The notes beneath the pieces were generated by a model. It was not told the origin of the DNA, made no database searches, and worked only from the letters and a program-made list of their open reading frames with translations. A stretch of DNA of 64,000 nucleotides, taken from the NCBI GenBank assembly GCA_016192455.1, contig JACPUC010000006.1, forward strand, positions 1 through 64,000, in the 5' to 3' direction. Every line of letters starts with the position of its first letter. The first letter of the stretch is position 1. The position numbers and the translations under genes were made by a program. Positions 1 to 42,853 of this stretch are shown here, one piece after another. The stretch is from Candidatus Tectimicrobiota bacterium. Lineage in GTDB: Bacteria > JACPUC01.

Positions 1-207
1 CAGGGTTGGTGGTGCGGAACTTGCGTGGCATAACACCCCCACCAGCAAACAGCGGAACAGGGCCGGCCCCCCGCCGGTTGCGAACACCTCACAGTCTACC
101 AAAAACTAGACGCCTGCGGGGGTTTCTCCGACAGGCTCCTAAGGGAGGAAGCCGGGAGTGGAACCTGGGGGAGGAACGTAGCGGCAGATCGCCTGTGTTC
201 CAGCCGC

Positions 208-5621: not shown

Positions 5622-5906
5622 TGCTGCCTGTGGGGTGCGCAGGCGGCGAGGGCAGGTCGCCCTCCGTTCTGATCCAGTGGCTCCACCCTGACGAAAGAAG
5701 GCGCCCCATTCTCAGACGCGGTGAGAGGGTGTGTAGATCCTACGTAGTCTCCAGGACACGTTGTGTAGGTATTAGACTCGCAGCGGCGCGGCATCCAGCC
5801 TCAGGAGGGAAAGGCAGCCACCTGGTTGCCGGCATTCCGGAGAGAAGAAAAGATATAGAAAATCAGGCTTTTCACAAAAGATGTTGAAAAGTTGGATGAA
5901 AACTCT

Positions 5907-5936
5907 TTGCTTTCTCCTGGAGGCTCTCAGTATAAT
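5907..5936 (+). promoter_or_regulatory. Candidate sigma70 promoter
   Basis: TTGCTT-N18-TATAAT in an AT-rich patch about 490 nt upstream of the ATPase gene. Confidence 0.5.
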
Positions 5937-6426
5937 AGGTGGAGGGTATGACAAAACCGTCCGCTGCTCGTGGGTGTCGTGCCTTGCGGAGGGAATTGCA
6001 GCCTACGCCGGAACGGCAGAGAAAACCACGGCCATCATGCCGGCGTGCTAATCGTGGAGCTTCCGGGGGCAAAGACTTCGTTGCTCCTGCTGAATGCGAG
6101 GTTCGGGCAAGGCGAGACACTGCCTCCTTGATTTCTTGTTCGAGAAACTGGAACCATGATGGTCGAGATGGAGTTCATGACGAGAACGGCGCCGCCTCAT
6201 TCATCTCGGTTCTCAGGGCAAGAGGCTGACGCCCTGGCTGGACCCTTGACGAGTGCAGCGCGGGGTGAGGAAGTGCTGCGGCGCGTCTTCTCTTTTCGGC
6301 AGCGGCCGCGCCGGCAGCGTTCTCCGCGAGGCCGCGGAACGTTCGCCCCCTGCTGAAGCCGCCACCGTTCACGTTCCGCACAGCCTGCTCTTCCAGGCAG
6401 TGGTTGAGAAGGCGGGAATCTCAAGG

Positions 6427-7230
6427 ATGTACGAAGCCTACTGGGGGCTGAAAGTTTCGCCGTTTGATAACGCGCCCGATCCAGCATTCTTTTACAACTC
6501 CCCAAAGCATGAAGAGGCCCTCAATCGACTGCTCTACGTAGCGCGGCGGCAGAAGGGGGCCGCCATGCTGACGGGCGAGATCGGCTGCGGCAAGACCCTG
6601 ATCGTGCGTCTCCTTATGAAGGAGCTGCTGCAACAGCACTACGAAATCGGCCTCATCGTCAACCCTATGCTCGCCCCCGATGAGCTGCTGCGCGAGATCT
6701 TGCACCAGCTTGGCCTCTCCGCCGGGGAGGAAGGCAAGGGCGAGCTGATCCATCGCCTGAACTCGATGCTGGTCGAGACGGACGCCCGGGGCCACAGCAC
6801 CGTCCTCATCATCGATGATGCGCAGGACATCCAGGAGACGCGCACCTTCGAGGAACTGCGCCTGCTCCTGAACATGCAGCTCAACAATCGCTTTCTGCTC
6901 ACGCTCCTCCTCGTCGGTCAGCCTGAGCTGGAGGTGAAGGTGACGAAGCTGCAACAGTTTGAACAACGCATCGCGCTCAAGTACCACCTGGACCCGCTCG
7001 ACTTCGATGAGACCGTCCACTACATCACCACCCGACTGGAGCGAGCCGGAACGAAGCGGCAAGTTTTTACCTACGACGCGATCGAGAAGATCTACGCCAT
7101 GAGTGGCGGCATCCCCCGTCGCATCAACAATATCTGCGATCTCAGCCTCCTGGTCTCTTACGGAATGCAAGCCAAGGAAGTGGATGTGAATCTCGTGCTG
7201 GAAGTTATTAAAGACCTGAAGTGGCATTGA
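6427..7230 (+). CDS. ExeA/GspA-type AAA ATPase (class often linked to exopolysaccharide/PEP-CTERM loci)
   Basis: MYEAYWGL..PF...PDP.FFY, Walker A GEIGCGKT, Walker B IIDDAQ, LVGQPEL, SGGIPRRIN. Confidence 0.88.
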   Translation: MYEAYWGLKVSPFDNAPDPAFFYNSPKHEEALNRLLYVARRQKGAAMLTGEIGCGKTLIVRLLMKELLQQHYEIGLIVNPMLAPDELLREILHQLGLSAGEEGKGELIHRLNSMLVETDARGHSTVLIIDDAQDIQETRTFEELRLLLNMQLNNRFLLTLLLVGQPELEVKVTKLQQFEQRIALKYHLDPLDFDETVHYITTRLERAGTKRQVFTYDAIEKIYAMSGGIPRRINNICDLSLLVSYGMQAKEVDVNLVLEVIKDLKWH

Positions 7231-7753
7231 GAGCGCCCAGGGGGAAGACCCGCGGGAGTTCCTCGTTACCCGAGGTCGGGTGCGGGACGCAGATGTCGTC
7301 GGCATGGCTTGGTTCTTGCTTGGAGATAAGCGGAGGCTGCGTTATCCTCGTCGCGGTGGGCGGGGTGGCGGACGCCTGGAGCGCCGAGCTTCCGGCGCCC
7401 TTGCGGGGGGGGGAGAGCAGGGGTCGGGCCCAGCCATCCCTGACGAACCCCTAGTAGAGAGAAGGCTGCACACCCAATTCTGTCGCGTTGCGCCGCCGCG
7501 TGGGTCGTTTGGTAGGGCGGGGAGCGGGTGGAAGAAGGTTTCTGCCGGTTTTGTTGCGCGACCCTTGCAGGAGGGTTCATCTTTACAAGTAGAGAGGCAC
7601 GCCTCTTGGCCTCAGGAGCGTCGGGGTGTGCCGGGGAATCGTTCTCGCGGCTCGCGTCGCCGCTTCTTCAGCCCGGCGTTGATGAGCCGTTGCGTTGTGT
7701 GGAGTTCTTCCCTGTGCCAGGGGTGGGTTCACCACCCTGCACTCGAGATCAGA

Positions 7754-8944
7754 ATGGTCCGCTTCTCCGATCTCATCAAGCGCGAGATGATCGATGCCCC
7801 CCAGCGCAAGCACAAGCCTGCTGGGCAGGAGGAGGAGAAGGAGCGCCCGCGCGAGGGGGGTGACGAGGTTGAGACCAGTCCCGAGAGGGGAGGCAGGGGC
7901 GGTGAGATCGGCGAGCGCTTCATTTCGAGGACAGCCCCGGAGCGGCCACCGGCCCGAAGCGGCGAGGGAGGGGGGCGCGTGGCGGCGCCGATCACGGTGC
8001 AGGCAACAAGGGAGAGTGCGGCAAGGGCGCTCAGCGTCGACGACTTCGTGCACTCCCAGGCCAACTCCTTCTACCTCTCCATCGTGGAGTACATCGAGCA
8101 GCAGCTCCGCCGCGTCATCGAGGATGCGCCGATCGAGGTGGCGCCTGGGGAAAAGATCGTCCAGCAGCTCATCGAAGACCCCAGGCAGTGCGAGCTGGTC
8201 GGTTTTCGCGCCACCCTGGGAGACGTGTCGCTGGACTGGCTTGCCACGAACATGGCGAACGTCTGCGTCTACTCCCTGAAACTTGCTCATGGGATGCAGC
8301 GCCACTCACCGCAGGAGCTGCGGCTCCTCGGCATGGCTGCGCTGCTGCACGATATCGGCGTGGCCAAAATCCCAGAGGCGGTGGTGAACAAGAATGAGGC
8401 GTTCACGCCCAAAGAGTATGAGCTGATGAAGCACCACCCGCAGATCAGCGCGCAGCTCATCTCCGCCTTGGGGGATGACTACAAGGAGGTGGCTGCGGTC
8501 GTCCTCCAGGAGCATGAACGGTACGGCGGCCAGGGTTACCCGCGCGGCCTGCGCGGCGAGTCCATTCATCCCTTTGCGCTCATCATCGGCATGGTCGATG
8601 TCTTCGATGCGCTGGTGAGCCCGCGGCCGCACCGCAAGCGCTTCAGCCCGCCCTACGCCGTGAAGTTCATCATCGAGACGCAGCGCGACCACTTTGATCC
8701 GCGCCTCCTGAAGCGTTTCGTCATGGAGTTTTCCATGTTCCCGCTCAACAGCCTGGTGCGTCTCAACACCCGGGCGATCGGGCGGGTGGTGCGGATCAAC
8801 AGCACTTACGCCATGCGGCCCACCGTGGAGATCATCTGCGACTCGCATGGGCGGCGGCTGGGTGTCCCGCAGGTGGTTGACTTGGCCGAGACGCCGCTGC
8901 TCTACATCATCGACAACGTTGACCCCGACGATGTGCCCGACTAG
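7754..8944 (+). CDS. HD-GYP domain protein (c-di-GMP phosphodiesterase-like)
   Basis: LLHDIG, HP, QEHERYGGQGYPRGL, DVFDAL.SPRPHR, FDP; start revised to MVRFSDLIK. Confidence 0.88.
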   Translation: MVRFSDLIKREMIDAPQRKHKPAGQEEEKERPREGGDEVETSPERGGRGGEIGERFISRTAPERPPARSGEGGGRVAAPITVQATRESAARALSVDDFVHSQANSFYLSIVEYIEQQLRRVIEDAPIEVAPGEKIVQQLIEDPRQCELVGFRATLGDVSLDWLATNMANVCVYSLKLAHGMQRHSPQELRLLGMAALLHDIGVAKIPEAVVNKNEAFTPKEYELMKHHPQISAQLISALGDDYKEVAAVVLQEHERYGGQGYPRGLRGESIHPFALIIGMVDVFDALVSPRPHRKRFSPPYAVKFIIETQRDHFDPRLLKRFVMEFSMFPLNSLVRLNTRAIGRVVRINSTYAMRPTVEIICDSHGRRLGVPQVVDLAETPLLYIIDNVDPDDVPD

Positions 8945-9272
8945 TGTTGCGTCACACAAATTCCCTCCTTAATCGGACGCCTTCTTCGGGCCATGTGGTG
9001 GGGGAGTTTTTGCGCAAGACCTTGGCTTCCCCACACCCCCAATCCCCGCGAGCTGCGCGGCAGCTCGCGTAGTCGGGGTGCGCGAGGGGGCGAGGCTCCC
9101 TCGCAAATTCTGGCGATAGAATGTGTGAAACAGCACACGAGGCCCTCCGGCGTCTCGTCCTGCCTGGGCCCGCCGAGGCGCCTCCGCCCGCAGGCGGCGG
9201 TTTGCTCGGCCGCGCTCCCCTCGCCGCCCTCTCGTTCCTCCCCCCTCGGCCCCTCTCCGCGCCTCTCAAGGC

Positions 9273-10427
9273 TCAGCGTCTATGCAGGCGCCAGAGGGCG
9301 TCGATGGCAAAGCCGCTGAGCCGCAGCATGCGCAGTAGGTAGGCAAGCGCGAAGAGTGGGCGCGGCAGCCAGGGGTAGTTTGCCGCCAGCGCGGACGGGT
9401 GCGGGAAGCAGGCCTCAACCAGCAGCCGCAGGCGTTGCCGCCGGGAAGGCGACCCATAGGCCAACATCACGTCGCCGAGGCGCGGCAGGGGCTGGAGCCG
9501 CGCCACCCCGAGGAGGAAGCGCCGCTCCACTCCGTCGAACGGCGCCTGGCGGTCGAGCCACGACTGCGGGACCGCGGGTAACCTCTCCCCCAGACCCAGG
9601 CGCAGCGTCTGCAGCAGATAGCAGAAGGCGCGCTCGCCGCCGACGGCGCGCGCCTCGCCGAGCACCTCCTCCCAGGTGATCTCCGGCTCCGACCCACCCA
9701 GGTGACGTTCCAACACCAGCCTCAGGTCGGCAACCCAGATGAGCCGCTTGAAGCCATGCTTGAGAGTGTGCGCCGTGAGGGCCAGGATCGTATCCGTCGG
9801 GCAGAGAAACCGTACACTGGCGGGGTAGCCGGGCATCGCCCTGGCCCGTTGCCAGAGGCCCATCGTGCTGAAGCGCCAGAGTCTGCCGCGGGCCGCCAGG
9901 CGCTCGACGTTGACGACGTGGCGGTGCAGGTCGATGACGGCGGCCCCCCGCACCCAGGTGGCGGAATCCGGCGCCAGGCGCTGGAAGCCACAGCTCCTGA
10001 GGACGCGGCGGAAGCGCTGGTACGAGCCGGGGAGGACGAGAAGGTCGAGATCTTCCATGGGACGCAGGCCGGGATCGGGGTAGTACAGCGCCTGCAGGAG
10101 CGCCCCTTGAATCGGCAGGAAGGAGCACTTCGCCTCGGCCGCCGCCGCCGCGACGACACCCAGCACATGCATCAGGTGCAGCGTGGTGGCGGTGGCGCCG
10201 TAGTAGGCGGCGCGCAAGAGGCTGAACGGGCGATTCAGGGCGGCTGTGCGTCGCAGCACCTCGCGGCACTGCCGGTAGAGAAGTCCCTGCAAGCCGTGGT
10301 CGCCGGCGAGGTCGAGCACTTCGCGCCAGTCCTGCACCGCGGCGCAGAGACGACGAACCTCGGGCGGCGGCAGTGGCTGGACCCGCGCAGCGCGCCTGAG
10401 GAGTTGCAGGGAGGTACGGTGGGGCAT
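9273..10427 (-). CDS. Nucleotidyltransferase family protein (NTP_transf_5-like)
   Basis: IQGALL..YY...LRPMEDLDLLV, IDLH, HTLKHGFKRLIWVADL. Confidence 0.85.
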   Translation of the reverse strand: MPHRTSLQLLRRAARVQPLPPPEVRRLCAAVQDWREVLDLAGDHGLQGLLYRQCREVLRRTAALNRPFSLLRAAYYGATATTLHLMHVLGVVAAAAAEAKCSFLPIQGALLQALYYPDPGLRPMEDLDLLVLPGSYQRFRRVLRSCGFQRLAPDSATWVRGAAVIDLHRHVVNVERLAARGRLWRFSTMGLWQRARAMPGYPASVRFLCPTDTILALTAHTLKHGFKRLIWVADLRLVLERHLGGSEPEITWEEVLGEARAVGGERAFCYLLQTLRLGLGERLPAVPQSWLDRQAPFDGVERRFLLGVARLQPLPRLGDVMLAYGSPSRRQRLRLLVEACFPHPSALAANYPWLPRPLFALAYLLRMLRLSGFAIDALWRLHRR

Positions 10428-10704
10428 TGCCGGCGCCGAGGTTCAATCAGGAAGGGCGGAGGCTGCAAGTTCGGTTTCTGACAAGCTTACGGTGTCCGAG
10501 TATACAGGAGAGAGCCAGAGGCGCGGAAGAGCTGGGGCTGGAAGCGGAGCGAGGCTTTCCTCGTTCGAGGGGGGGAATCGACCGCCGAGAGGGCGCGGAG
10601 GTTGGCGGGTCTGCCGGGTTTTTCCAGGGGAGAGGAGGAACAGCGGCGGCGCCGGGACGGCCGCTCTCCTGCCGGGGTTCCGACCCCTGGCGCCGTTGTT
10701 TGTC

Positions 10705-11697
10705 CTAGCTGCCGGTCTCGGGGGTTGCCGCGAGGCGGTCGACGAGCTGCGCCACCAGGGCCGCGGTTGCGGGCGCCTCGCCGCTGCGCAGGGTGAAGCA
10801 GGCGCAGCGTTCGACAAGGCGGAGGAGGGCCTCGAAGCTCGGCACCCGGGGCGCGGGCAGGCGCACGAGCTGGTTCGCTAGATGGCGGAGCATGAGGCTG
10901 CGAGGCATCGGCTCGAGCGACGGCGCGGCGGGCTGGGCGGCGAGCTGGGGGAGGAGGATGGCCCGCAGCGGCGCGCCCGCTCCCAGCCTGGCGGGAGCTG
11001 CCCCGCTTTCCCCCTGCGCGCCTCTGTCTGCCTGGCTCACGACATCCAAGGGGTTGACGTACCAGAAGGGCCCCTTCTCTTCCTTGATGTGGTACCCGCC
11101 GGCCGACAGCCGGGGGAGGAAGGGACGCAGGGGGTCGAGGCTGCCCGCCTTGATGCTGAGAGCACGGTAGTAAGGAAGGATGCGCAGCGAGGGGACCTCA
11201 AGGAACACCACCTCATCGGCAAGGTAGCTGAAGCCGTGCGCCAGGAGGGTGCAGACGAGGGTGGTCTTGCCGGCGCCGGGGGGACCCACCACAAGAAGCC
11301 CGACGCCGCGTTTGACCACGGCCCCGGCGTGGAGCTGCAGGTAGTCGCTCAGGTGCTCGACGAGGCAGCAGGCCAGCGCCATCTCCAGCTCGGGCACCAG
11401 CTCGCGGCGGTTGCTTGTGGTGTAGAGGAGATCATCCTCTTCCAGAAGCACGTAGCGCAAGCGTCGCTGCGATCCGGCCTGCGGGGTGACGCGCCTCTGG
11501 GCAAAGAGCGACAGGGTGACATGAGCGGGTTCCGTCGGCGCGACGAGGAGATGCCGATGGAGATGCGCAAACTCGTCCACGATGGTGCGAACCGTGGAGC
11601 GCACGCACGCCGAGAAGGTGGCAAGGCGGAGGTGGCAGCTTGCTGTCCAGCACTTGGGCAGGTGGAGGAGCGACGTTGCCCGCTGATCGTGAGGCAT
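10705..11697 (-). CDS. HPr-kinase-related kinase (HprK-rel-A / lasso-peptide kinase-like)
   Basis: LQLHAGAV, Walker A GPPGAGKTT, YLADE, PYYRALSIK; start uncertain. Confidence 0.85.
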   Translation of the reverse strand: MPHDQRATSLLHLPKCWTASCHLRLATFSACVRSTVRTIVDEFAHLHRHLLVAPTEPAHVTLSLFAQRRVTPQAGSQRRLRYVLLEEDDLLYTTSNRRELVPELEMALACCLVEHLSDYLQLHAGAVVKRGVGLLVVGPPGAGKTTLVCTLLAHGFSYLADEVVFLEVPSLRILPYYRALSIKAGSLDPLRPFLPRLSAGGYHIKEEKGPFWYVNPLDVVSQADRGAQGESGAAPARLGAGAPLRAILLPQLAAQPAAPSLEPMPRSLMLRHLANQLVRLPAPRVPSFEALLRLVERCACFTLRSGEAPATAALVAQLVDRLAATPETGS

Positions 11698-12044
11698 ATC
11701 GAGCTCGGAGCAAGGTGGAGATCTTCCGGCTTCACCGCCGGCGGTCTGGTCGAACGGATTACCATCTGGCGGGGGAAAGGCGGTGAGAGAAGACGCACTC
11801 GGCAGCCGGGAACGGCCGCTGCGCAGGGGACATCGCGACGTGTCCCCGGATTGTCCCCGCCGGAGGTGCGTGGCTGGGCACGAGGCGCTGTGGCGTGGGT
11901 TTCACCCGCCTGGCGTAGATGGTGCTGAAGTAGGCAAGCAAGGTCCAAGTCATTGCAAACGCGGGCATCAGCACATGCTCAAGGGCGGCCCGCTGGCGGA
12001 TGGGCGAGCGACTTTCGACGCCGGCCCTGCAAGCGCGTCGTACC

Positions 12045-12338
12045 TCACGGCAGTGGCGCATCAAGCAGGTTGCGACTGCGAAACAATTCAAGCAGCGCCT
12101 GAATATCCTTCTCGGCCTGCTCGGGTCGCACGTCAAAACGGCCGCAGACGGCCTCCACCAGCTCCGCCATTCCATGCCGGCCATCGAGGAGGTCCCAGAT
12201 GGCTCTGGCTGTCGGGTTCAGCGCGTGAACCATCTCAGCTTGCGGGTCCAGGACAATGACCTCGTCATCGAGAGGTCGAACAATCAGGTCCTGGCGCCGA
12301 GAGGGGTGCTGCATCTGCTGCTGCTTCACGACGCGCAT
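12045..12338 (-). CDS. PqqD-family protein / RiPP recognition element (RRE)
   Basis: LDDEVIVLD..HALNPTARAIWDLLDG...LVEAVCGRFDV..EQAEKDIQALLELF..NLL. Confidence 0.9.
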   Translation of the reverse strand: MRVVKQQQMQHPSRRQDLIVRPLDDEVIVLDPQAEMVHALNPTARAIWDLLDGRHGMAELVEAVCGRFDVRPEQAEKDIQALLELFRSRNLLDAPLP

Positions 12339-12504
12339 CGACGAGCGGAGAATGGCGAAAAGCTCACGCCTCGCCGCCTAGGTTGTTCCACAACGAGCAC
12401 GTTCCTCGGCACGGCCAAGGAACGCACCCTCCCCACCCGCTCTTTCACGCAGACCAAGTGTGTCTTCCTGAAGGGACCCTGCTCGCCGCGGGCTGCGTCG
12501 AACC

Positions 12505-12816
12505 CTAGTCGTTGTCCTCGCCAAAACGCCCGCGACGCCGACGCCGGCCAGGCGGGGACGTCTTCTCCTGTTTCTTCCCCTTCCTGTCTTTGTCATCATC
12601 CTGATCCTGGGGGAGAAAGGGATTCCACCTCTGGGCTTCGACGTCTGAGAGGGCAACCGACTGGACCAGCGGGGCGACATAAGGAAGCAAGCCAATCCCC
12701 ACCAGCCCGGTCTTCAGGAACCGCCGCCGCGTGGCGCCAGACTCCGCCCCCTCGGGCTGTGACTCTCCACCCTCGCGGTCTTCGTCACTCTCGGAGCGCA
12801 TGCTGCTCGTGCTCAC
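12505..12816 (-). CDS. Putative precursor peptide with twin-arginine-like signal and YxxP motif
   Basis: GTG start with AGGAGG RBS; TRRRFLK, hydrophobic stretch, YVAPLV, VEA/Q, charged tail containing TSPP. Confidence 0.75.
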   Translation of the reverse strand: MSTSSMRSESDEDREGGESQPEGAESGATRRRFLKTGLVGIGLLPYVAPLVQSVALSDVEAQRWNPFLPQDQDDDKDRKGKKQEKTSPPGRRRRRGRFGEDND

Positions 12817-12852
12817 CGCTGATGCCTCCTACAACTAGTTCTCACGTAATAA

Positions 12853-12881
12853 ATTATAGCCGCCAGGTAAGGAGGCGTCAA
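12853..12881 (-). promoter_or_regulatory. Near-consensus sigma70 promoter for the peptide cassette
   Basis: Minus strand TTGACG (12881-12876), N17, TATAAT (12858-12853). Confidence 0.75.
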
Positions 12882-13292
12882 GTAACACTGGGAGGATCTC
12901 CGCGACTTGCACCGCTCTCTTCCACGCTTCTCGGCCTGGAGTAGTCCAACACTCCGGCCGCCGCTCCAGGCAAAACTTCATTTTCGCACGTGGTCAACGG
13001 TTCCTTTATCGCTCTCCGTCGCTGCCGCGGCCTTCGGTGTGCCGCGGCATTTTTTGAGTTGACTTTGATCGAGATTGAATTTATTTTGCTTTTCACGGAG
13101 ATATAGTAAAAACTCTGCGGCTCCACCTTAGGGTCCTCACCACAACGGTTCGGAGCTGCGGGGGAGACCACCAGCGTGTGGGGAATTCTTCATGCGGCTG
13201 CCCGCCCGCCAGCGGCTGTCAGGGGCGGCAGGCGCATCTCCAGTGCGAGCGGGGGACCAACACGGTCGAGCAACGCGAGTAAGGGAGAGGCC

Positions 13293-14834
13293 ATGATGAG
13301 AGTCGTCAGACTGCTCGGTGCGCTCCTCCTTGGGCTCTTCATCACCGCCTGCGCGCAGCGCACGCTGTACGTTTCCGATGGGCGGATCGTGCCTCCGGAG
13401 CGCGCGCTTCTAGCCCTGGCGCAACAGCAGGCAAAGTCGTCCGAAGCCGCTCGGGTGGAAGAACGCGGCATTCCCGCAGCACCACCCACCATCTCCCCCC
13501 CTCTGCAGCTCGAAGTTAGGCCCACGCCGCCATCTGGCGAATCCCCCGCGGAGGAGGCTGAGGCTGCGGGGCAAGAGCAGGCGCCGCAAGGTGAAGCCCC
13601 TGCGACGCCGGCTGAGGCCCAGCCCGAAGCTGCCGCGAAGCCGAGCAATGGCAAGGGCGCGCCTGCCGCGGCAGCGGTGGGGACGCCCGCGGCGCCGGCA
13701 AAGTCGAACGGGGCCGCACCGCCAGGACAGCGACCGGCAGTGGCGGCACCCGAGGGGATAACCGGGCGCGAAATCCCGATCCTCGCCCCGCCGGTTCCGA
13801 TCAGTGAGGAGCTGCTTCCTTTCAAAATGATCCAGGGGCAACCGGAGTACATCGTCGGCCCGGGCGATGTCCTGGCGGTGCGGCTGTTCACCCGCGGCAC
13901 CGAACGGGAACTCAGCCTCCTCGTTCCTCCATCCGGCACCATTTCGATTACATTCGTCGAGGACGTGCAGGCAGCCGGGCGCACCCCTTCCGAAATCGAT
14001 GCGGATATCACCAGAAGGCTGTCCCGCTTTTTCCGCGGCCCGCAAGTGGACGTCTTTGTCAAAGAGTACAGCAGCAAACGGATATTCTTTTTCGGCGAGG
14101 TGAACCGTGTGGCCGGCCAGCGCTCCGGGCCGGGCATCTACCCGCTGTCGGGACGCACCACGCTGTTAGAGCTTCTCCTGCAGGCCGGCAGCGAAACTCC
14201 CGACGCCGACCTGAAGCAGGTGGAGCTGACACGCGACGGGAAGGTCTATGGCTTGAACCTGGAAGACGCTCTTTTTCGCGGCGCCGCGGAGCATAATCCC
14301 GTCCTGCAACACAACGATCGCGTCCTCATCGCCAACAAGCGGCGCTTCATCAGCGCGGTGCGCGAGAAAATCCGGGTGAGCGCCTACGGCGAGGTTGTCA
14401 GGTCGGGCAGCTTCGACTTGCCAGCGGATCAGACCTTCCGCATCATGGATGCGCTGGCCTCGGCGCAAGGCTTCACCCAACGTGCAGACCTGAAAGCGAT
14501 TCGGCTCATCCGGCAGGAAAAAGGCAAGATCACCGTCCAGAAGGTCAACTTCTTTGATATCCTAAAAGGGGATGTGAACCAGAACGTGGCGCTTCAGGAC
14601 GGCGACCAGGTTTTCCTGGATCGATCCTTCTCGGCGAAGTTCAGCACTGTCCTCAACCGTGTCAACCCGATCCTATCGCTCATCCTCATCCCCGCGATCC
14701 TGCGCGACACCTATACCACCGGCGGCGGGCTGCGCTACGATACCGGGCCGGTGGAGACTGGCGTGGGCGTGTCGCCGGAGGTTACCACGATTGCCAGGGA
14801 GCAGTTGCTGCGGACCTTGCCCGTGGCGCCGTAG
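13293..14834 (+). CDS. wza: Polysaccharide export lipoprotein (Wza/OPX, SLBB domains) with Pro/Ala-rich N-terminal linker
   Basis: Lipobox FITAC; EYIVGPGDVL, G.IS..V..AGRT, FGEV..PGIY, second SLBB GEV..SG. Confidence 0.88.
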   Translation: MMRVVRLLGALLLGLFITACAQRTLYVSDGRIVPPERALLALAQQQAKSSEAARVEERGIPAAPPTISPPLQLEVRPTPPSGESPAEEAEAAGQEQAPQGEAPATPAEAQPEAAAKPSNGKGAPAAAAVGTPAAPAKSNGAAPPGQRPAVAAPEGITGREIPILAPPVPISEELLPFKMIQGQPEYIVGPGDVLAVRLFTRGTERELSLLVPPSGTISITFVEDVQAAGRTPSEIDADITRRLSRFFRGPQVDVFVKEYSSKRIFFFGEVNRVAGQRSGPGIYPLSGRTTLLELLLQAGSETPDADLKQVELTRDGKVYGLNLEDALFRGAAEHNPVLQHNDRVLIANKRRFISAVREKIRVSAYGEVVRSGSFDLPADQTFRIMDALASAQGFTQRADLKAIRLIRQEKGKITVQKVNFFDILKGDVNQNVALQDGDQVFLDRSFSAKFSTVLNRVNPILSLILIPAILRDTYTTGGGLRYDTGPVETGVGVSPEVTTIAREQLLRTLPVAP

Positions 14835-15277
14835 CGCTCGACGGTTGACGGTGCGCGAGGGCCGAGGCAGCGGCCGCGAGCCGGCGCGGCGAGGTCGTCG
14901 TGGACCAGCAGCGGCAACACGCTTGGCGCTCTTGCTGCGCGCCTTGCATGCCGATAGGGGCGGTAAGCGCCCTTCGCGCGGCGACATTGGCGCGCCGCGG
15001 GAGGGTGGAGGTGCGCCACGGGGTGATCGCCTCTTCGTCCGCATGCGAGGGGACCGCCTTGTGACTTGCTAGGAAGGGTGGGAATGCGTATACGTTTACA
15101 TAGGGGATGAAAAAGCAGACGGTGTTTGTTCGAGCGGTTGAGGCTGTCGAGGAGGGGTGGCGCCGTAGTGGTAGGAGGGCGGCGGCGAAGAGCCGCCCGC
15201 CGCGGAGTGGGTCGGGCGGCGCAAAAGTGAACTGCGGCGGTATTCTCCACCACCCATGGTTTTTCTAGTGTGCAGCA

Positions 15278-17869
15278 ATGGCAACCTACGAATTTAACAT
15301 TCGCGACTACTGGCATATCATCCGCAAGCGCAAGATGGTGGTCATCTTCACCATCGTCATGTTGGGCTTTTTCAGCTTCGCCTTCGGCTCCTTGCGCAAG
15401 CCCATTCCGATCTACCGCGCCACCTCAGCGGTGAAGATTGATCAGAATGTGGGTCTGGCCGGGAGGTATTTCGACAGCGGCACCGCGGCGGCGGGTGACA
15501 ACCTAGAGACGCAGGCGATGATCATCCAAAGCTTCCCGATCATGGAGCGGGTGGCCCGGCAGTTGAAGATCGTCTCAGGGGAAGGAGAGACCGAGGAGGT
15601 CCGGAACAGCAACGAGTACCTGAACCAGATTCTTGCCATCAAGGGGCAGGTGAACACCTCGCAAGAAGGGTTCACGAATATCATCAATGTCCACGCCACC
15701 TCCCGCGACCCGCGCTTTGCCCAGAAGCTCGCCAATGCCGTGGCCGAGGTCTACCGCGATTTCCACAACAGCAAGCGCAATCAGCGCAAGAACGATACCC
15801 GGGAGTTTATCGAAAAGCAGCTTCTCGTCTACCGGCAGCGCTTGGCCGAGGGTGAGGAGGAGGTCCGCCAGTACCGCGAGCGCCACAACATCGTCTCCAT
15901 CGATGCGCAGTCCGGGCAGCTCCTGACGCAGCGGCAGTCGGTGGAGGATCGCCAGAAACTGCTTGAAGCCTCCCTCAGGGACCTCGATTCCGTGGAACGG
16001 GAGCTGCGGAATACGAGAAATCTCCAGCAAGCGAATCTCGGCACCTTCTTCGCCGAAGGTGTGAGCGGCATGTTCGGGCGCCTCCACGCCCGTCTCACGG
16101 AACTCAACCTCCAGCGCGACACCCTCCTCTTGCAGTTCACGAAAGAGCACCCGCAGGTGCAGGACATGAACCTGCAGATCGAAGAAGTCCTCATGGCCAT
16201 GACGAATGAGTTGAAGGGCCACCGGGATTCGCTGCGCTTCCGGCTGAAAGAGGTAGAGGCTACGGCCAAGGGGCTCGAGGAGTACTCCCAGCGGCTGCCG
16301 CAGTTGGGACTGGAGCTGGCCCGCCTGCAGCGCCGGGTGGCCCTGAACGGCGAGCTTTACACGTTCCTGGAGCGGAAGTACCAGGAAGCCCTCATCAATG
16401 AGTCGGAGAAAGTCGAAGAGGTCAGCATCGTGCGGCCGGCCCTGCTGCCGACCGAGCCGATCAACCAGCCGAGCGTGGTGACCACCACCATGGTCGGGAT
16501 CGTCCTTGGCGGCATCCTGGGATTGGTGTTCGCCTTCATCCTGGAAACCTTGGATACCTCGATCGGGCGCATCGAAGATATCGAGAGCTACCTCGATGTG
16601 CCGGTGCTCGGCGTCATCCCCTACTTCGAGATTGAAACGCACGGCGAAGAGGAGACCGAGCCGGACGGCGGTCGCGGGGAGCAGGCCACGCGGCAGAGTC
16701 GCGCCCTGCTGAGCTCGTTCTACTCGCAGAACTCGAGCGCGGCGGAGGCGTACCGCTCGCTGCGCACGAACGTGCAGTTCCTGCTGCGCGAGCGGAACCT
16801 GAAGACCATCGTGGTCTCGAGCACGACGCCGCGCGAGGGGAAATCGACCATCGCCGTCAATACCGCCGTGGCGATGGCCCTGGTCGGCCTGCGCACGTTG
16901 CTCATCGACTGCGACCTGCGGCGTCCATCGATCGCCCGCTACTTCGGCATCGAGAACGATCTCGGCTTCACCGATATCATCGTCGGCAACAGCGACTGGC
17001 GCGAGACCGTGAAGACGGTTGCCGACATCATCATGGGGCAGATGGGCCTGGAGAGCGTCCTCAACACGCCGGGGATCGATAACCTCAACCTCATCGTCAG
17101 CGGCAAGGTTCCGTTGAATCCCACGGAGATGCTCAACTCCAAGCGCGCCGAGGAGCTCATCCGGGAGATCAGCGCGGACTATGACGTGGTGCTGATCGAC
17201 ACGCCGCCCATCCTGCCGGTGACTGATGCGGTGGTCCTCGGTTCGAAGGTCGACGGCGTCATCCTGGTGTACCTGGCGGGCGAGACGGGGCGCAAGTCGC
17301 TGATGCACGCCAAGGGGCAGATGGATGCGGTGCGGGCGGAGGTGCTGGGCATCGTGCTGAACGGCCTGAAGTCGGCTATGAGCCCCGATTACATGGATTA
17401 TGGCTACTATCACTACTATGGTCAGGCCGAGGAAGAGGGGAAGGTGGGGCTTGGCGAGGAGGGCTTTGGGCCCTTGCAGAAGGTGAAGCGCCTCTTTGGC
17501 CGTCTGACGGGATCCGGGAAGAAGGCGGGGAGCGCGGTTGCGAGCGAGCCCGAGCAGGAGTTCGAGGGTTTGGGAATGAAAACGCGCGGCTCGGCGGAGA
17601 ACGGGCGCTCGCTGACGAAGACCCTCTTCCTCTTCCTCGCCGTTGCCGCCCTGCTGGTCGGCTATATCCTGGCCCACGGCCAGCCACCCAGGCAGAGCGA
17701 AGACATCATCCCACAGCGCGCCGCGGTGCGCACCTCGCAGGTGAGCAGCCCCGCGGAGACGATGCCGGACGGCGTCGCACCCCCTCCCGCCGCGACTGTC
17801 GCGGCGCCGGTTTCCAAGGTTTCTGCCGTACCGAAGGCCAAAGCGCCAGCGCGCGCGGCGGGGCCGTAG
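15278..17869 (+). CDS. wzc: Polysaccharide co-polymerase / tyrosine autokinase
   Basis: N-terminal TM, coiled-coil domain, second TM, AEAYRSLRTN, STTPREGKST, IDCDLRRP, IDTPP, Tyr cluster YMDYGYYHYY. Confidence 0.93.
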   Translation: MATYEFNIRDYWHIIRKRKMVVIFTIVMLGFFSFAFGSLRKPIPIYRATSAVKIDQNVGLAGRYFDSGTAAAGDNLETQAMIIQSFPIMERVARQLKIVSGEGETEEVRNSNEYLNQILAIKGQVNTSQEGFTNIINVHATSRDPRFAQKLANAVAEVYRDFHNSKRNQRKNDTREFIEKQLLVYRQRLAEGEEEVRQYRERHNIVSIDAQSGQLLTQRQSVEDRQKLLEASLRDLDSVERELRNTRNLQQANLGTFFAEGVSGMFGRLHARLTELNLQRDTLLLQFTKEHPQVQDMNLQIEEVLMAMTNELKGHRDSLRFRLKEVEATAKGLEEYSQRLPQLGLELARLQRRVALNGELYTFLERKYQEALINESEKVEEVSIVRPALLPTEPINQPSVVTTTMVGIVLGGILGLVFAFILETLDTSIGRIEDIESYLDVPVLGVIPYFEIETHGEEETEPDGGRGEQATRQSRALLSSFYSQNSSAAEAYRSLRTNVQFLLRERNLKTIVVSSTTPREGKSTIAVNTAVAMALVGLRTLLIDCDLRRPSIARYFGIENDLGFTDIIVGNSDWRETVKTVADIIMGQMGLESVLNTPGIDNLNLIVSGKVPLNPTEMLNSKRAEELIREISADYDVVLIDTPPILPVTDAVVLGSKVDGVILVYLAGETGRKSLMHAKGQMDAVRAEVLGIVLNGLKSAMSPDYMDYGYYHYYGQAEEEGKVGLGEEGFGPLQKVKRLFGRLTGSGKKAGSAVASEPEQEFEGLGMKTRGSAENGRSLTKTLFLFLAVAALLVGYILAHGQPPRQSEDIIPQRAAVRTSQVSSPAETMPDGVAPPPAATVAAPVSKVSAVPKAKAPARAAGP

Positions 17870-18260
17870 CGCGGCAGGAGGCGACCCCGCGGCCGCCAAC
17901 GCGGCATCGGACCATCGGCGAGCCGGCGAGCAAGCGCCCCGGGCCCTGGTGAGGCGCGGGGGTGGCGGCGCCGCGGCGGCGCGACCGCTGCGAGGCGGCG
18001 TAGGGCAGCCTCCCTCTTGGCGTGCGTGGACCTCGCGACCCCCTCCTTTACCAACACCGCCCCCACAACGCTGGGGGCGACGGTCAGCGCGGCGTTGGCG
18101 GCGCACAACCGCGCCGAGCACCCTTCCTTGCCGATCTCCTCTCTCCCCGGCCCTCCGCGCCGGGAGACGCCTGCGGGAGCGCCGTCAGGGCGCGCCAGCC
18201 GCGGCGCTTGCGCTGGGCGCCGGGGCAGCCCGGCAGCGAAGAAGCATCGGGACCCTCACC

Positions 18261-19964
18261 ATGCGTGGACCAACCGCCGGGTCAGCAAGCCTTGTGATGC
18301 TCCTGTTCGTCGCCGTGATCCTGGTGGTCACGTTCTTCGCCGGCTTGGTCGTCATTCAAATTCCTGGCTTCGTGGCGTTGTCCGTCGGCCTCGGCCTCGC
18401 CATGTTCGTCCTTGCCTTCTTCAACCTCGATCTCGCTCTCTTCTTGCTCATCTTTGCCATGCTCCTGTCGCCGGAGTTCAGCGTTGGCGGTGGCGGCGGC
18501 ACCAGCATGGAAACCCAGCGCGGCGCGGTCATTCGCCTCGATGACCTCCTCCTCGTCCTGATCTCCTTCTCCTGGCTGGCTCGCATGGCGCTGCAAAAGG
18601 ACCTGGGCCTCATCCTGCGGACGCCCTTGAATCGGCCCATCATTGCCTACACCTTCGTCTTCGTCTTGTCCACCGGCCTGGGCATGATGGTGGGTCGGGT
18701 ACAAATCTTCTCCGGCTTCTTCTTCATCCTGAAGTACCTCGAGTACTTCGTGCTCTACTTCATGGTCTCCAATAGCCTGAGAACGAAATCGCAGGCCTAC
18801 CGCTACATCGCTGCCCTGCTCATCACGGCGGGGATCGTGTCGGTGATCGCGATCGTCCAGATTCCCGGAGGCCGGCGGGTTTCGGCGCCTTTTGAAGGGG
18901 AGCGCGGCGAACCGAATACCCTCGGTGGCTACCTGGTGCTGATGATCGCGCTCTCCCTGAGCATGGCGCTGACCATCCGCGACCGCGCCAAGACCTGGTT
19001 ACTCGTGGGTCTTAGCTTCATCATGGTCATCCCCGTCCTCTTCAGCCTGTCGCGCAGCTCCTGGCTGGCGATGTTCCCCATGACGGCGGTGCTCCTCTTC
19101 TTCTGCAAACGCCGCGGCTACCTCCTCCTGGGGGTGATCGTCATTGCCCTCCTGGCGCAGAGCGTCATTCCGCCTGAGGTGCGCAACCGCATCTTGTACA
19201 CCTTCCAGCAGCAGCGCACCTCCGTCGCGGTCGGCGGCGTGGCCCTCGATCCTTCGACCTCGGCGCGACTCTCCAGCTACTGGTCGGTCCTGACGGACGT
19301 CACCAAGCATCCCATTCTCGGCTACGGGGTGACAGGCTACCCATTTCTGGATACCCAGCTCATGAAAGTGCTTGCCGATACCGGGCTGGCCGGGGTGGGG
19401 ACCTTCCTGTGGCTCATCGCGGCCTTGTTCTACCACATCTGGTCCAGTCTCAAACGCGCCACGACTCCGCTGGAGGAGGGGATCGCGCTGGGGTTCCTGG
19501 CCGGACTTGCGGCCATGCTCACCCATTCCCTGGGTTCAAACACCTTTATCATCGTGCGCATCATGGAGCCGTTCTGGTTCCTGGCGGCAATCGTCACGCT
19601 TCTGCCGAGCCTCGAGGAGAAAGCCGCGGTGGAACCATCCGTGCCTGCTCCTCGCCGCTTGCAGCGTCGTCCCCTGCCGTTGCCAACGCGGCTGACGCCG
19701 CGGCCTGTGGGTCGAGCCGTGGCGCCGGAGCCTCCCGCCCCGAGCGAGCAGCCAGCGGAGCGCGCGCCTGAACCCCGGAGCAGGCGACCTGCCGGGCGCC
19801 AGCCCGCCCGCCCAAGTCCGCCGGCGCCGAAGCCCGGGCGGGGTGTGCGGATCAGCGGGGCCGTTGCAGCGCGAAGAGGCGGGAGCGCTTCAGCCCCAGG
19901 CGAGCCAAAAGATACTCGGCAAGGCAGTGGAGGAAGCGCAGGCCGTAGCCGACGCTCCGGATGA
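18261..19964 (+). CDS. O-antigen ligase / Wzy polymerase family membrane protein
   Basis: More than 10 TM segments, [31 protein letters not shown]; Pro-rich tail. Confidence 0.85.
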
Positions 19965-20595
19965 AGGAGATCGACGAGGCCTCCCGCATGTAACGCACCG
20001 GGATGGGCGCATCGCCAAGCCGAAAGCCGAAGGCCACCGTCTGAACCAGGAGCTGCGCGTCGAACTCAAACCCATCGCCGTTCCGCTGGAAGGGGATGGT
20101 CTCGAGCACCTCGCGCCGATACACCCGAAAGCCGGAGTGCACCTCGCCGAGGTTCTGTCCCAGCACCACGTTGCTGATGATGGTGAGGAGCCGATTGAAG
20201 AAGTACTTGTAGGGCGGCATGCCGGACGAGAGCGCCTCGCGGCGGGTGCGGATGCGCGAGCCGAGCATCAGGTCGCAGACGCCGTGCTCGATGAAGCCGA
20301 GGAAATAGGGGATGAGGCGGCTATCGTACTGGTAGTCGGGATGCAGCATGACGATGACGTCGGCTCCGGCTTTTAACGCCGCTTCATAGCAGGTCTTCTG
20401 GTTGCGACCGTAACCGTAGTTGCGGTCGTGGCAGTGCACCTCCAGGCCGAGGGAACGGGCAATCGCCACGGTGGCGTCGCGGCTGCCGTCGTCCACCAAG
20501 ATGATGCGGTCCACGCAGTCAGCCGGAATGTCGGCAACCGTGCGCGCCAGGGTTCGGGCCGCGTTATAGGCGGGGAGTACCACCACCACACGCAC
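19852..20595 (-). CDS. Glycosyltransferase family 2 (DPM1-like)
   Basis: [42 protein letters not shown] start with GGAG RBS. Confidence 0.9.
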
Positions 20596-21378
20596 CGTCG
20601 TGTTCTCCGGCGCAGTGCCGCATCTCGGCGCGGGGGCGGGAAGGCTGCCTGCCGCGGCCTTCACGAACCGGTTTCGAAAGCCAGCCGCGATCCGGCGCGC
20701 CGTGCCCCCAGAGCAGCCCCTGCCGCGGCGAGCGGGGCCGCCGCGCGCGGCCCCAGGAAGCCTGCGCTGCCGCAGGCGGAGCGCTCGCCCGGCGTGCTCA
20801 TCGGCTGCGGAGTGTACCATACCATACGATGACCGCGGAGGGTACCGTGGCCGCGGGCTCCGTCGAGCCCGTTGTCGGTGAACTTCGCCGACAGGCGGCT
20901 GGCGCGGCCGGCGGCGCGCCGCCGGCGACTCTCCCCGTGCGGCCAGGCGCTCGCTGCCGCGCGAGCTCGCATGAGCCCCTCCGAGCAGTCGCGGATGAGT
21001 CGGCTGGAGGTCTCGAACACCCGCCCTTGGGTCCATCGCGGGAGCGCAACTTCCAGGACGCCACGCTCGCATCGCCTGCCGTGTTCAGTGCCGGCGTGGT
21101 GAGCGAGCGGCAGCGACGCTCGATCTCAGGTCATCCAGGCGATGAGGCGGCAAGCCGGCCGCTCCAGTCCAGGGCCGGGCCGCCGATGCTCAGGCGCCTG
21201 CAGGGCACGCCGATCCTTCCCCCACGCCGAGGCGCCATGCTACACTGCGCCGCACCCCCTCCCTCCCGCACCAGCCGCGAGGAGCAGCGCGGGCCGCCGG
21301 CGGGGCGCCACGCCGCAAGGCTCGGCTGACGGCCGCCGGGGCAGCCGAGCCATCTCCTGACCTATCCGGTTGCCACGC

Positions 21379-22689
21379 ATGAGCAGTCGCTTGCTGCAAC
21401 GGCTTGTAGGTTCGAAGCTCCTGGGTTCACAAGGATCGTTGCGGCAGAAAACCGTCGCCGGCAGCCAGTGGCTCATGGCGCGCTCCGCGGTGCTGGGTTT
21501 CACCGATCTGCTGCGGGCGGTCGTCTTCGCGCGCATCCTCTTCCCGGATGATTACGGCCTCATGGCCCTGGCCATGATCCCCATCGGCCTTTTCGAATCC
21601 TTCTCAACCACCGGCATCGACATCCTCATCCAGCGGGACAGCGACGAGTTTCGCCGCAAGCTGGAGAGCTACTGGACCATCAAGCTCGTACGCGGCTTCC
21701 TTCTCACCCTGCTCACCTGGTTCGCGGCGGAGCCGCTCGCCAGCTTATACCAACGACCTGATCTCGTTCCCTTGGTGCGCTTCCTGGCGGTGCGGTTTCT
21801 CATCCTCGGCGGTTGCGGGTTTGGCAAGGAAGTCAGGCAGCGCAGCATGGATTTCGTCAGCGTGGCGGTGGTTGAGTCCGCCAGCTCGGTTGCCGTCCTC
21901 CTCGTCAGCCTCGGGGCGGTGTTCGTGTGGGGAAACTTCTGGGCCCTGGCCATCGTCAGCATGGCCACCGCGGTCAGTCTCCTGGTAAGCTCGTACATCC
22001 TCTACCCCTGGCGGCCGGGACTGCGCCTCGAACGCTCGATCCTCAAGGATGTGGCGGCCTTCAGCGGCAGCCTCGTCATCATGAACCTTTTGAACGCCTT
22101 CTTCTCCTACTTCGATACCGGCGTGGTTGGCAAGCTTCTGGGAGTGGAGGAGCTGGGCTACTACGCCAGAGCCTACTTCCTCGCCTTGATTCCTGTCACC
22201 TACTTCTCAAACGTCGTCGCCCCCATCTTCCTGCCGGTGTTTCGACAGGTCGCCGACGATGCGCCTCGTCTCCGCCGCGCCTTTGGCAAGTCCGCGCTGG
22301 TGATAGGGCTGCTCGTCCTCATCATGGGGGGAGTATTCTTCCTCTTCGCCCGGGAGATCGTGGTGATCGTCTATGGTCGGCGCTGGCTGCCGGTGCTGCC
22401 GGTGTTTCAGGTCCTCCTCATCTTCGGCCTCGGCAAGAGCATCGTGGCCATCTGCCCGTCCATCTTCTTCCTGCGCAACAAGCCGTGGATGATCACCCTC
22501 TCCGCCGCCGTGATGGTTGTGGTCTTCGGCGCCCTCTGCATTCCCCTGACCATGGCCTACCACCTCCTGGGAACGGCGTGGTCGGTGGTCATCGCCTCGC
22601 TCCTCTCCTACGCGCTCTCCTTCGCGCTCGTGGGGTATCTGCTGGCCAGGCCAGCCCAGAGCGGCGCGCAAGGCCGCGAGGCGGCCTGA
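21379..22689 (+). CDS. Wzx-type polysaccharide flippase
   Basis: ARILFPDDYGL, VGKLLG.EELGYY.AY, many TM helices. Confidence 0.88.
   Translation: MSSRLLQRLVGSKLLGSQGSLRQKTVAGSQWLMARSAVLGFTDLLRAVVFARILFPDDYGLMALAMIPIGLFESFSTTGIDILIQRDSDEFRRKLESYWTIKLVRGFLLTLLTWFAAEPLASLYQRPDLVPLVRFLAVRFLILGGCGFGKEVRQRSMDFVSVAVVESASSVAVLLVSLGAVFVWGNFWALAIVSMATAVSLLVSSYILYPWRPGLRLERSILKDVAAFSGSLVIMNLLNAFFSYFDTGVVGKLLGVEELGYYARAYFLALIPVTYFSNVVAPIFLPVFRQVADDAPRLRRAFGKSALVIGLLVLIMGGVFFLFAREIVVIVYGRRWLPVLPVFQVLLIFGLGKSIVAICPSIFFLRNKPWMITLSAAVMVVVFGALCIPLTMAYHLLGTAWSVVIASLLSYALSFALVGYLLARPAQSGAQGREAA

Positions 22690-38701: not shown

Positions 38702-42853
<4,152 letters not shown>

Follow-up and report, generated by a model that had tools for sequence, protein, structure and literature searches.

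The stretch of DNA analyzed here (the window: 64,000 nucleotides, positions 1 to 64,000 of contig JACPUC010000006.1 in the Candidatus Tectimicrobiota bacterium assembly GCA_016192455.1) carries on its minus strand, at 12505..12816, a small gene whose product, we lean towards believing, is the substrate of the three-gene cassette that follows it, made up of a PqqD-family recognition element for peptides synthesized ribosomally and modified post-translationally (RiPPs; RiPP recognition element, RRE), an HprK-like kinase and a PF14907 nucleotidyltransferase. The leader of this putative precursor, of some 61 residues, would have two parts, the motif TRRRFLK of the twin-arginine translocation (Tat) type and the segment LLPYVAPxVx[ST] read by PqqD. 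An earlier note on this DNA had proposed that a single leader holds both a Tat-like signal and an overlapping RRE-type YxxP motif, and such a dual-purpose leader, Tat-type motif plus RRE recognition, is well supported by computation: the twin arginines, the double leucine, the tyrosine and the proline are invariant among 20 aligned relatives, synteny with PqqD genes recurs, open reading frames (ORFs) exist in which PqqD is fused to the leader, and a model of the PqqD-leader complex is supportive.

The precursor gene and its operon

The gene order on the minus strand is precursor, PqqD, HprK-like kinase and nucleotidyltransferase, with the following features:

12881..12853, minus: sigma-70-type promoter, TTGACG-17 nt-TATAAT, 11/12 consensus matches
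12825-12830, minus: ribosome-binding site AGGAGG, 8 nt 5' of the GTG
12505..12816, minus: precursor gene, 103 aa, GTG start (alternative start: an ATG five codons in)
12712..12732, minus: TRRRFLK twin-arginine consensus, residues 29-35
12658..12690, minus: LLPYVAPLVQS, residues 43-53, predicted RRE-type recognition segment and also hydrophobic core of the putative signal
12634..12642, minus: VEA, residues 59-61, candidate signal peptidase I site ahead of Q62
12508..12633, minus: charged tail Q62-D103, 42 aa, putative mature peptide
12550..12561, minus: TSPP (T86, S87), sole Ser/Thr of the tail, S87 being the candidate acceptor
12045..12338, minus: PqqD-family RRE, 97 aa, PF05402 at 1.3e-17
10705..11697, minus: HprK-like kinase, 330 aa, P-loop GPPGAGKTT, TIGR04352 at 7.9e-28
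9273..10427, minus: PF14907 (NTP_transf_5) nucleotidyltransferase, 384 aa, 2.3e-34

The full 103-residue translation is MSTSSMRSESDEDREGGESQPEGAESGATRRRFLKTGLVGIGLLPYVAPLVQSVALSDVEAQRWNPFLPQDQDDDKDRKGKKQEKTSPPGRRRRRGRFGEDND, which divides from N to C terminus into MSTSSMRSESDEDREGGESQPEGAESGA-TRRRFLK-TGLVGIGLLPYVAPLVQSVALSDVEA-QRWNPFLPQDQDDDKDRKGKKQEKTSPPGRRRRRGRFGEDND. YVAPLV (residues 46-51) lies within a run of 20 uncharged residues, G37-L56, and the tail, of composition D7 E2 K5 R8 with one Ser and one Thr, ends in ...GEDND. The layout read earlier from the letters is borne out, with TRRRFLK, YVAPLV inside a hydrophobic segment, the VEA/Q site and the 42-residue charged tail all in their places, T86 and S87 of TSPP alone supplying the Ser/Thr of the tail, and a ribosome-binding site and promoter as strong as had been claimed. 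Scanning 9000-13300 (4.3 kb) for promoters returned 2 promoter-like sites, against a mean of 0.1 in shuffles. The precursor protein matches no Pfam family, and no NCBIfam family at E<=0.1.

The genome to which the window belongs (G000) measures 4.46 Mb at 66.8% G+C. Across its six-frame translation the loose pattern RRxhh-x(8-18)-hhxYxxP has 6 matches, 3 of which are small ORFs adjoining the three HprK-like kinase genes of G000, and the strict [ST]RRxF[LI]K occurs 4 times, in three cases near an N-terminus with a hydrophobic stretch behind it. Judged by sequence, the combination RR...YxxP is no chance product of G+C-rich DNA. As leads only, not used as evidence, the best protein-language-model neighbors of the precursor (0.91-0.92) are unnamed small proteins, and the nearest named clusters (0.82-0.85) are the Rieske N-terminus, the methylamine dehydrogenase light chain and the Fe-hydrogenase small subunit, all Tat-signal proteins.

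A leader-defined family

A word-based search with the precursor found two relatives only, at 81% and 46% identity; such searches reach little here (3 matches for the peptide query, 2 for PqqD), and it took a profile to bring out the family. Run against 1.84 billion representative proteins, a profile of those relatives gave 21 matches at E<=1e-3; a second profile search gave 24 at the same threshold (8000 scored candidates), the source names being 'IPT/TIG domain-containing protein' and 'hypothetical protein' only. No Pfam or NCBIfam model covers the family leader, and on the sequences at hand the precursor family is rare, unannotated and spread over several phyla.

In the alignment of 20 sequences (A2, from which P0008 and P0018, long and of low complexity, were left out), R30, R31, L43, L44, Y46 and P49 are invariant and F33, G37, P45, V47, A61 and P88 are at least 90% conserved. 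The consensus, [ST]RRxFLKxGLKGaaLLPYVAPlIE[ST]IxLSdAxAQ, reduces to the family signature [KR]RxF[LI]K...LLPYVAPx[IV]x[ST]...AxA. Pooling profile matches with locus ORFs gave 47 distinct sequences, 45 of which fit the core pattern, the two that fail being L061 and L035. The twin-arginine position is RR in 42 of the 45 and KR in the other 3, counts that, like those for YxxP, are partly circular because the pattern itself required [KR][KR] and YxxP. It made no demand on the seventh residue after the tyrosine (Tyr+7, S53 in the window), which is Ser or Thr in 45/45 and Thr in about two thirds of the family. A strict AxA falls within Tyr+8..23 in 35/45 and mostly ends at Tyr+15, the position of A61 in the VEA of the window. 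Conservation of YxxP and of the tail's SP among homologs, which the earlier note had set as its check, is found at both places: Y46 and P49 are invariant in the 20 aligned sequences, P88 is among the positions conserved at 90% or above, and [ST]P occurs in the tail of 37/45.

The tails themselves vary. Short ones abound in Arg/Gly, Lys, Asp or Gly and in many cases have a [ST]PPPG or SPIGNxPPPP motif; others carry as many as four repeats of the IPT/TIG type, with 6/20 matched by NCBIfam CoaZ_rpt_PGGG, and family members reach 349 aa, with folded domains.

Modeled binding of the leader by PqqD

To the window PqqD (5-row alignment) we modeled precursor residues 22-70 (20-row alignment). The complex has an ipSAE of 0.67, the best of three controls 0.33; the ipSAE mark is reached by 116/157 solved complexes and by 2/215 mismatched pairs. 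At least 73% of the contacts are common to the model runs, and the partner pLDDT is at least 54. The predicted interface joins leader residues 43-57 and 59 to PqqD residues 35-44 (the beta3 strand) and helix residues 66-89, with S53 at its center, in what is the canonical RRE mode, and the RR motif lies outside it. The model supports the binding of the YxxP segment of the leader by PqqD, and we propose that such binding occurs in vivo. Two considerations temper this: the alignments behind the model are shallow, and the nearest solved chains by sequence (TbiB1 5v1u/5v1v, TfuB1 6jx3 and 9x8z) belong to YxxP RRE-leader complexes, so that its pass may reflect likeness to them.

Recurrence of the leader beside PqqD and kinase genes

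Outside G000 the leader turned up at 12 distinct loci, drawn from public genomes, metagenomes and a sample of 401 genomes; 10 of them are informative (L020 and L022 end at or just past the precursor). A PqqD gene is directly adjacent in 6 of these 10 (L015, L018, L019, G006, G247 and G102) and an HprK-like kinase lies within about 2 kb in another set of 6 (L015, L018, L019, G006, G247 and G215:C89), the kinase of L015 sharing 29% identity with that of the window (E 8e-17). Host genomes of the family loci range from 28% to 67% G+C. An HprK_rel_A-like gene reaches E<=1e-10 in 28 of the sampled genomes without exceeding the curated cut-off in any; the leader occurs in 5/401, and 4 of those 5 are among the 28. 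Weighing on the other side, neither PqqD nor kinase is present in the available DNA of 3/10 loci (L016, L017 = L021, and L023).

Two metagenomic ORFs, P0005 (171 aa) and P0007 (301 aa), have a PqqD domain fused N-terminal to the leader, P0005 beginning with a second, truncated RRAFLQSGLK segment. A weak member of the family, QRRFFK...LAYVIPVITT, stands at L061 (G102:C6) 1077-3155, minus strand, between an Asn-synthase-like gene (PF00733, 6e-52) and PqqD, and may link the family to lasso systems in evolution.

A second locus of G000 itself, on contig C12 (L014 = G000:C12:84000-99922; 5246-10935, minus), encodes two RR...YxxP peptides, …RRDLLK…LLVYHPPSIRT… and …RRDLFK…LLAYHRPSIRS…, with Met/Gly-rich tails, each adjoining an HprK-like kinase:

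L014 5246-5563 and 6977-7207, minus: small precursor ORFs
L014 5656-6579 and 8469-9416, minus: HprK-like kinases
L014 7241-8596, minus: PRMT-like methyltransferase, PF22528
L014 9622-10935, minus: PF14907 protein

There is no PqqD gene in this locus at 5246-10935. A second PqqD gene of G000 stands alone on contig C18 (L025, 1450-1719, plus; PF05402, 63 bits), with neither kinase nor precursor nearby, and might act on the peptides of C12.

Further enzymes accompany the leader in some loci. Methyltransferases of the protein arginine methyltransferase (PRMT) kind occur in L018, G006, G247 (5' end only) and G215:C4 in addition to C12, with PF22528 (PRMT_C) in the enzymes of L018, G006 and G215:C4 and PF05185 (PRMT5) in that of G247. 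The ORFs outside C12 are:

L018 3918-4883: PRMT-type ORF, PF22528
L029 2342-3295: PRMT-type ORF, PF22528
L030 1-402: PRMT-type ORF, PF05185
L035 2087-3055: PRMT-type ORF, PF22528

The RG-rich tails in L018 and L030 fit arginine methylation. The tails of C12 and L035 contain no Arg, and the leader twin arginines are therefore the only arginines that these share with the rest. In L030 (G247:C34), at 1626-2283 on the minus strand, two tandem precursors have KR for RR and long (GVARGR)n tails ending ITPPPGRGRGRG. Radical SAM enzymes occur in L018 and G215:C89 and PF14907 genes in G006 and G215:C4. In L015 (8240-9751) and L019 (2729-3271) the kinase is followed by a conserved protein that passes through the membrane several times and matches no Pfam family. 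A PMT_2/TPR glycosyltransferase lies nearby in L018 (9461-11680). Separately, periplasmic O-glycosylation is another possible use of the Pro-rich SP linker.

Tat export and signal peptidase cleavage

The earlier note had held that the leader both recruits modifying enzymes and directs Tat export. The first half agrees with the predicted PqqD interface at residues 43-57, which leaves the RR motif free; for the second, which we hold to be modestly favored on sequence grounds, the evidence points both ways. TRRRFLK is an exact match to the Tat consensus S/T-R-R-x-F-L-K, and RR/KR is conserved although it falls outside the predicted RRE interface. In the window protein the motif is followed by a hydrophobic (h-) region of 20 uncharged residues, G37-L56, and by the cleavage candidate V59-E-A61, where relatives mostly have AxA. 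Long members with IPT/TIG or CoaZ repeats, domains of surface type, show no other signal. G000 encodes TatC (PF00902, 236 bits), as do 5/5 other genomes with family loci, and two LepB-type signal peptidase I genes; no signal peptidase I (SpI) of the archaeal type exceeds its cut-off in G000, the best match to TIGR02228 being 28.2 bits (cut-off 51.85) for the LepB-type gene on contig C27.

Several observations weigh against a Tat signal. The RR motif is preceded by a 28-residue acidic n-region, and the presence of TatC counts for little because 11/14 control genomes also have it. The Tat model TIGR01409 (TAT_signal_seq) finds no match in the window protein at E<=0.1 and picks up just 3/20 family members, the best at E 3.4e-5; in most relatives, the window protein excepted, K and E interrupt the h-region and leave about 12 uncharged residues; and in the fusion ORFs a folded PqqD stands ahead of the RR motif, which comes some 100-117 residues into the protein, an atypical position for Tat. 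Either these fusions are gene-call or assembly artefacts, or the RR motif is no export signal there. The last three of these points, and the description of leaders in the linear polyphosphorylated peptides (LPP) of Bacillota, which in the available text of PMC13381572 are not described as signal peptides, would fit a leader devoted purely to RiPP-type docking, whose RRxFLK is read by the kinase or another enzyme and not by Tat, and whose product stays or leaves by another route. We regard this as unlikely, since it leaves an exact Tat consensus with RR in 42 and KR in 3 of 45 sequences, an AxA-type site at a fixed distance, long members typical of surface proteins without any other signal, twin arginines outside the PqqD interface, and an operon with neither pump nor peptidase.

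The proposal that signal peptidase takes the place of a dedicated protease accords with three findings: among the ORFs scanned at 6253-22689 there is no peptidase gene and no ABC transporter or pump gene, the AxA stands at a fixed distance from the tyrosine, and the LPP pathway uses a homolog of signal peptidase I (available text of PMC13381572). Housekeeping signal peptidase I would make the cut after VEA61.

The candidate phospho-acceptor

TSPP had been put forward as the phospho-acceptor. It contains the tail's only Ser/Thr and [ST]P recurs in 37/45 tails; the invariant hydroxyl of the family, however, is in the leader, at S53. By analogy with characterized systems we name S87 tentatively, with rather less than even confidence. 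Should the kinase act on the mature part, as it does in both studied systems, LPP and pseudomycoidin, T86 and S87 would be the sole candidates, and S87 is favored over T86 because LppK, the LPP kinase, refuses Thr. IPT/TIG members have SP 2-6 residues past the predicted cut, near the LPP position. Three points count against S87: the S/T at Tyr+7 is the only hydroxyl invariant in 45/45, and lies inside the leader; S87 is about 25 residues into the tail (core residue 26), the LPP site being core residue 3 in the available description; and 8/45 tails have no [ST]P.

S53 itself is an improbable acceptor. So, to much the same degree, is the account built on it, in which the kinase would target the S/T at Tyr+7, the phosphate gating release from PqqD or entry into Tat, and the tail would not be a target at all. 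Its appeal is that Tyr+7 is S/T even in both C12 paralogs, whose tails are wholly different, that no partner but PqqD is more constant than the HprK-like kinases, and that S53 is central in the predicted interface; this last fact, though, makes RRE binding an equally good explanation of the conservation. Both studied systems modify the core, not the leader (PMC13381572 and PMC6993621, as far as their available texts go), and about two thirds of the family have at this position the Thr that LppK rejected (PMC13381572).

A proposed course from binding to export

In the course that we infer, from binding in vivo through the chemistry and its acceptor site to Tat export and cleavage, cytoplasmic PqqD would bind the core of the signal and retain the precursor in the manner of a Tat proofreading chaperone, offering the tail to the ATP/NTP-dependent enzymes. 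The kinase would phosphorylate a serine, most likely S87, and the nucleotidyltransferase would build on the phosphate, as in LPP and pseudomycoidin. The modified product, once released, would be exported by Tat, and the cut after VEA61 would release a polycationic peptide of 42 aa close to the exopolysaccharide machinery. The Tat system and LepB would thus stand in for the pump and the dedicated peptidase of LPP. That the PqqD-type RRE doubles as a proofreading chaperone of the Tat signal, export being licensed only after the kinase, nucleotidyltransferase or methyltransferase has acted, is a possibility that we rate a little below even; because LLPYVAP would serve as the signal's hydrophobic core too, RRE binding and entry into the translocase are proposed to be mutually exclusive.

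If this is true, orphan cassettes of PqqD and HprK-like genes, with or without nucleotidyltransferase, PRMT-like and radical SAM genes, which curated libraries name by homology only, would have a substrate, and phospho-peptide chemistry of the LPP type, described in Bacillota, would extend to other, mostly uncultured phyla. A docking motif inside a Tat signal would link secretion to ATP-dependent tailoring in the cytoplasm with no need of a protease or transporter of the system's own, diderms having swapped the Gram-positive RiPP peptidase and pump for their own Tat system and signal peptidase. RiPP logic would moreover reach whole proteins, because R/G-rich peptides of 40 residues and IPT/TIG surface proteins of several domains have the same leader.

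Three further accounts of the gene fare worse. It is very improbable that the product is an ordinary small protein of the exopolysaccharide locus, secreted by Tat or Sec or anchored by its signal, with PqqD adjacent for no functional reason: the gene does adjoin Wza/Wzc-type genes, and the three family loci without PqqD or kinase in their available DNA would suit this, but LLPYVAP is conserved far beyond the needs of a signal core, PqqD/kinase adjacency recurs across genomes of 28-67% G+C, PqqD-leader fusion ORFs exist, and half of the six loose-pattern matches in G000 adjoin its three kinases. A lasso-peptide precursor has still less in its favor: the YxxP leader motif with a PqqD/B1-like RRE (Y46-V-A-P49, predicted interface 43-57), the occurrence of HprK-like kinases and nucleotidyltransferases in paeninodin-type clusters (PMC6993621, available text) and the weak relative of G102 between an Asn-synthase-like gene and PqqD all recall lasso systems; we rejected it since neither an Asn-synthase-like lasso cyclase nor a B2 protease is found among the ORFs scanned at 6253-22689, and family members extend to 349 aa with folded domains. 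Equally remote is a chance ORF, which a 66.8% G+C genome full of spurious long ORFs might suggest, given homologs at 81% and 46% identity, a family across several phyla, and a near-consensus promoter and ribosome-binding site.

Genomic surroundings

Around the operon the window contains the following:

12395..12429, minus: 16-bp perfect RNA hairpin between the precursor and PqqD genes, without U-tract, -27.3 kcal/mol, z = -3.0
7280..8944, plus: HD_5 (HD-GYP-like) protein, convergent with the operon
13176..22689, plus: divergent exopolysaccharide locus (Wza-like, Wzc-like, Wzy_C, flippase; GT2 on minus), context only

The hairpin may be a partial terminator or an RNA-stabilizing end that raises the ratio of precursor to enzyme. 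It is all that was found in the 166-nt gap 3' of the precursor, which has no convincing ORF. The 347 nt that separate PqqD from the kinase (11698-12044) likewise hold no convincing ORF that might be a lost gene or a further precursor; their predicted folding on the minus strand is very stable, at -133.9 kcal/mol, a figure without a shuffle control. Rfam has no match in 9000-13300 at E<=0.1.

HD_5 genes stand beside the precursor in four loci:

window 7280-8944, plus
L019 2-1033
L020 67-1293
L022 30-713 and 1218-2408

This neighbor may be a regulatory link, possibly to cyclic di-GMP and biofilm matrix. The recurrent setting in polysaccharide loci, shared by the window and by LPP as far as the latter is described in the available text, suggests a function tied to the cell envelope or to the matrix of biofilms.

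Farther along, an IS200-like Y1 transposase match (PF01797, 9e-8) lies at about 40510-40741 on the minus strand, inside a 1398-aa ORF (38702-42898) that has no other matches and is probably spurious. The sequencing runs containing the window stretch are groundwater metagenomes; the eight listed for 11900-13100 are provisionally DNA by their records, with no RNA run among them. None of the 400 sampled relatives shares a rank below domain with G000, which therefore looks isolated at a high taxonomic rank within the collection sampled, as a deep-branching groundwater lineage.

Comparison with known systems

Among the best curated matches are the models of the NCBIfam 'HPr-rel-A system' (TIGR04352, HprK-related kinase A, and TIGR04353, PqqD_rel_X), which has the same pairing of a PqqD-type protein and an HprK-like kinase. 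Canonical membership was rejected: the window kinase scores 97.4 bits against TIGR04352 (cut-off 200) and the window PqqD 32.8 bits against TIGR04353 (cut-off 35), the best NCBIfam match of the PqqD being ScmD (TIGR04248) at 48.3 bits, below its cut-off of 100. The full-text literature searched holds no paper on HPr-rel-A, TIGR04352, 'HprK-related kinase', SynChlorMet or choice-of-anchor Z.

The Tat proofreading chaperones TorD, DmsD and NapD stay bound to Tat signal peptides for as long as the substrate is immature. The role proposed for PqqD resembles theirs, that of a small cytoplasmic signal-binder delaying export until maturation, but the folds are unrelated, and maturation would here consist of passenger tailoring and not of cofactor insertion.

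Signal-bearing substrates of RREs have a precedent in the DUF2282 precursors with DUF2063 RREs, because these begin with Sec signals, their variable leader being separate (PMC12710340, available text). In both cases an RRE-dependent precursor opens with a secretion signal and the cell's own machinery exports it and removes the leader (as predicted for the window precursor); the DUF2282 type differs in keeping Sec signal and leader apart, where here a Tat-type signal would contain the RRE motif, and in its other enzymes. The available text of PMC12710340 reports no specific motif recognized by the RRE in DUF2282 precursors and names YxxP as a characterized lasso recognition sequence; neither there nor in the available text of the RRE-Finder paper (PMC7470986) are kinases or Tat mentioned. 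In the full-text literature searched, outside which lie subscription papers and the supplements of PMC13381572, a Tat-type leader on an RRE substrate is not described; among the listed papers on twin-arginine and RiPP, by their titles and the starts of their abstracts, there is no natural Tat-type RiPP leader, and those listed on PqqD, HPr kinase or RiPP recognition elements do not mention arginine methyltransferase.

Lasso tailoring of the paeninodin/pseudomycoidin kind (B1 RRE, PadeK/PsmK and PsmN) uses the same three accessory protein types as the window, which differs in having no cyclase, B2 protease or ABC exporter. In pseudomycoidin PsmK phosphorylates a Ser and PsmN is required for a hexose on the phosphate (PMC6993621, available text). 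The acceptor described for these lasso peptides is the C-terminal Ser; the window peptide ends in ...GEDND. The lasso leader, to which the earlier note had compared the precursor, gives way as comparator to the LPP leader, whose YxxPxV fits better.

The closest known system, as far as its available description goes, is the Bacillota pathway of linear polyphosphorylated peptides (LppA/K/B/S/D/N; Popov et al., Nat Commun 2026, PMC13381572). In the text available, LPP precursors of 35-200 aa have a conserved N-terminus, YxxPxVLxHQxIxFETxxS, and variable C-termini; LppB is a discrete RRE and LppN an uncharacterized NTP transferase; the HprK-like LppK phosphorylates core Ser3 several times over and does not use Thr or Tyr; LppS, a SipW-like signal peptidase I, cuts only with the RRE; LppD is an MsbA-like pump; and the clusters, stated to be restricted to Bacillota, lie in capsule loci (PMC13381572). 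The same text contains neither 'signal peptide' nor 'twin-arginine' (0 occurrences).

On this description, the window operon shares with LPP a conserved leader and variable C-terminus, YxxPxV, a discrete PqqD-type RRE, an HprK-like kinase and an NTP transferase, the lack of a cyclase, the polysaccharide locus and, as a prediction for the window precursor, removal of the leader by an activity of the signal peptidase I type. It differs in several respects. The LppS SpI peptidase and the LppD pump of LPP clusters have no counterpart in the window operon; the window leader opens with a Tat consensus, and only YxxPxV is shared with the LPP consensus, being followed by QSVALSDVEA in the window and by LxHQxIxFETxxS in LPP; the acceptor is core Ser3 in LPP, and the sole core Ser of the window is residue 26; and some loci of the window family add PRMT-like methyltransferases or radical SAM enzymes. 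The window operon thus falls outside LPP as defined and yet most likely works like LPP. The design, one that we have not found in print, is most likely that of LPP-like, RRE-guided tailoring with a Tat-type leader, related to the peptide class of 2026.

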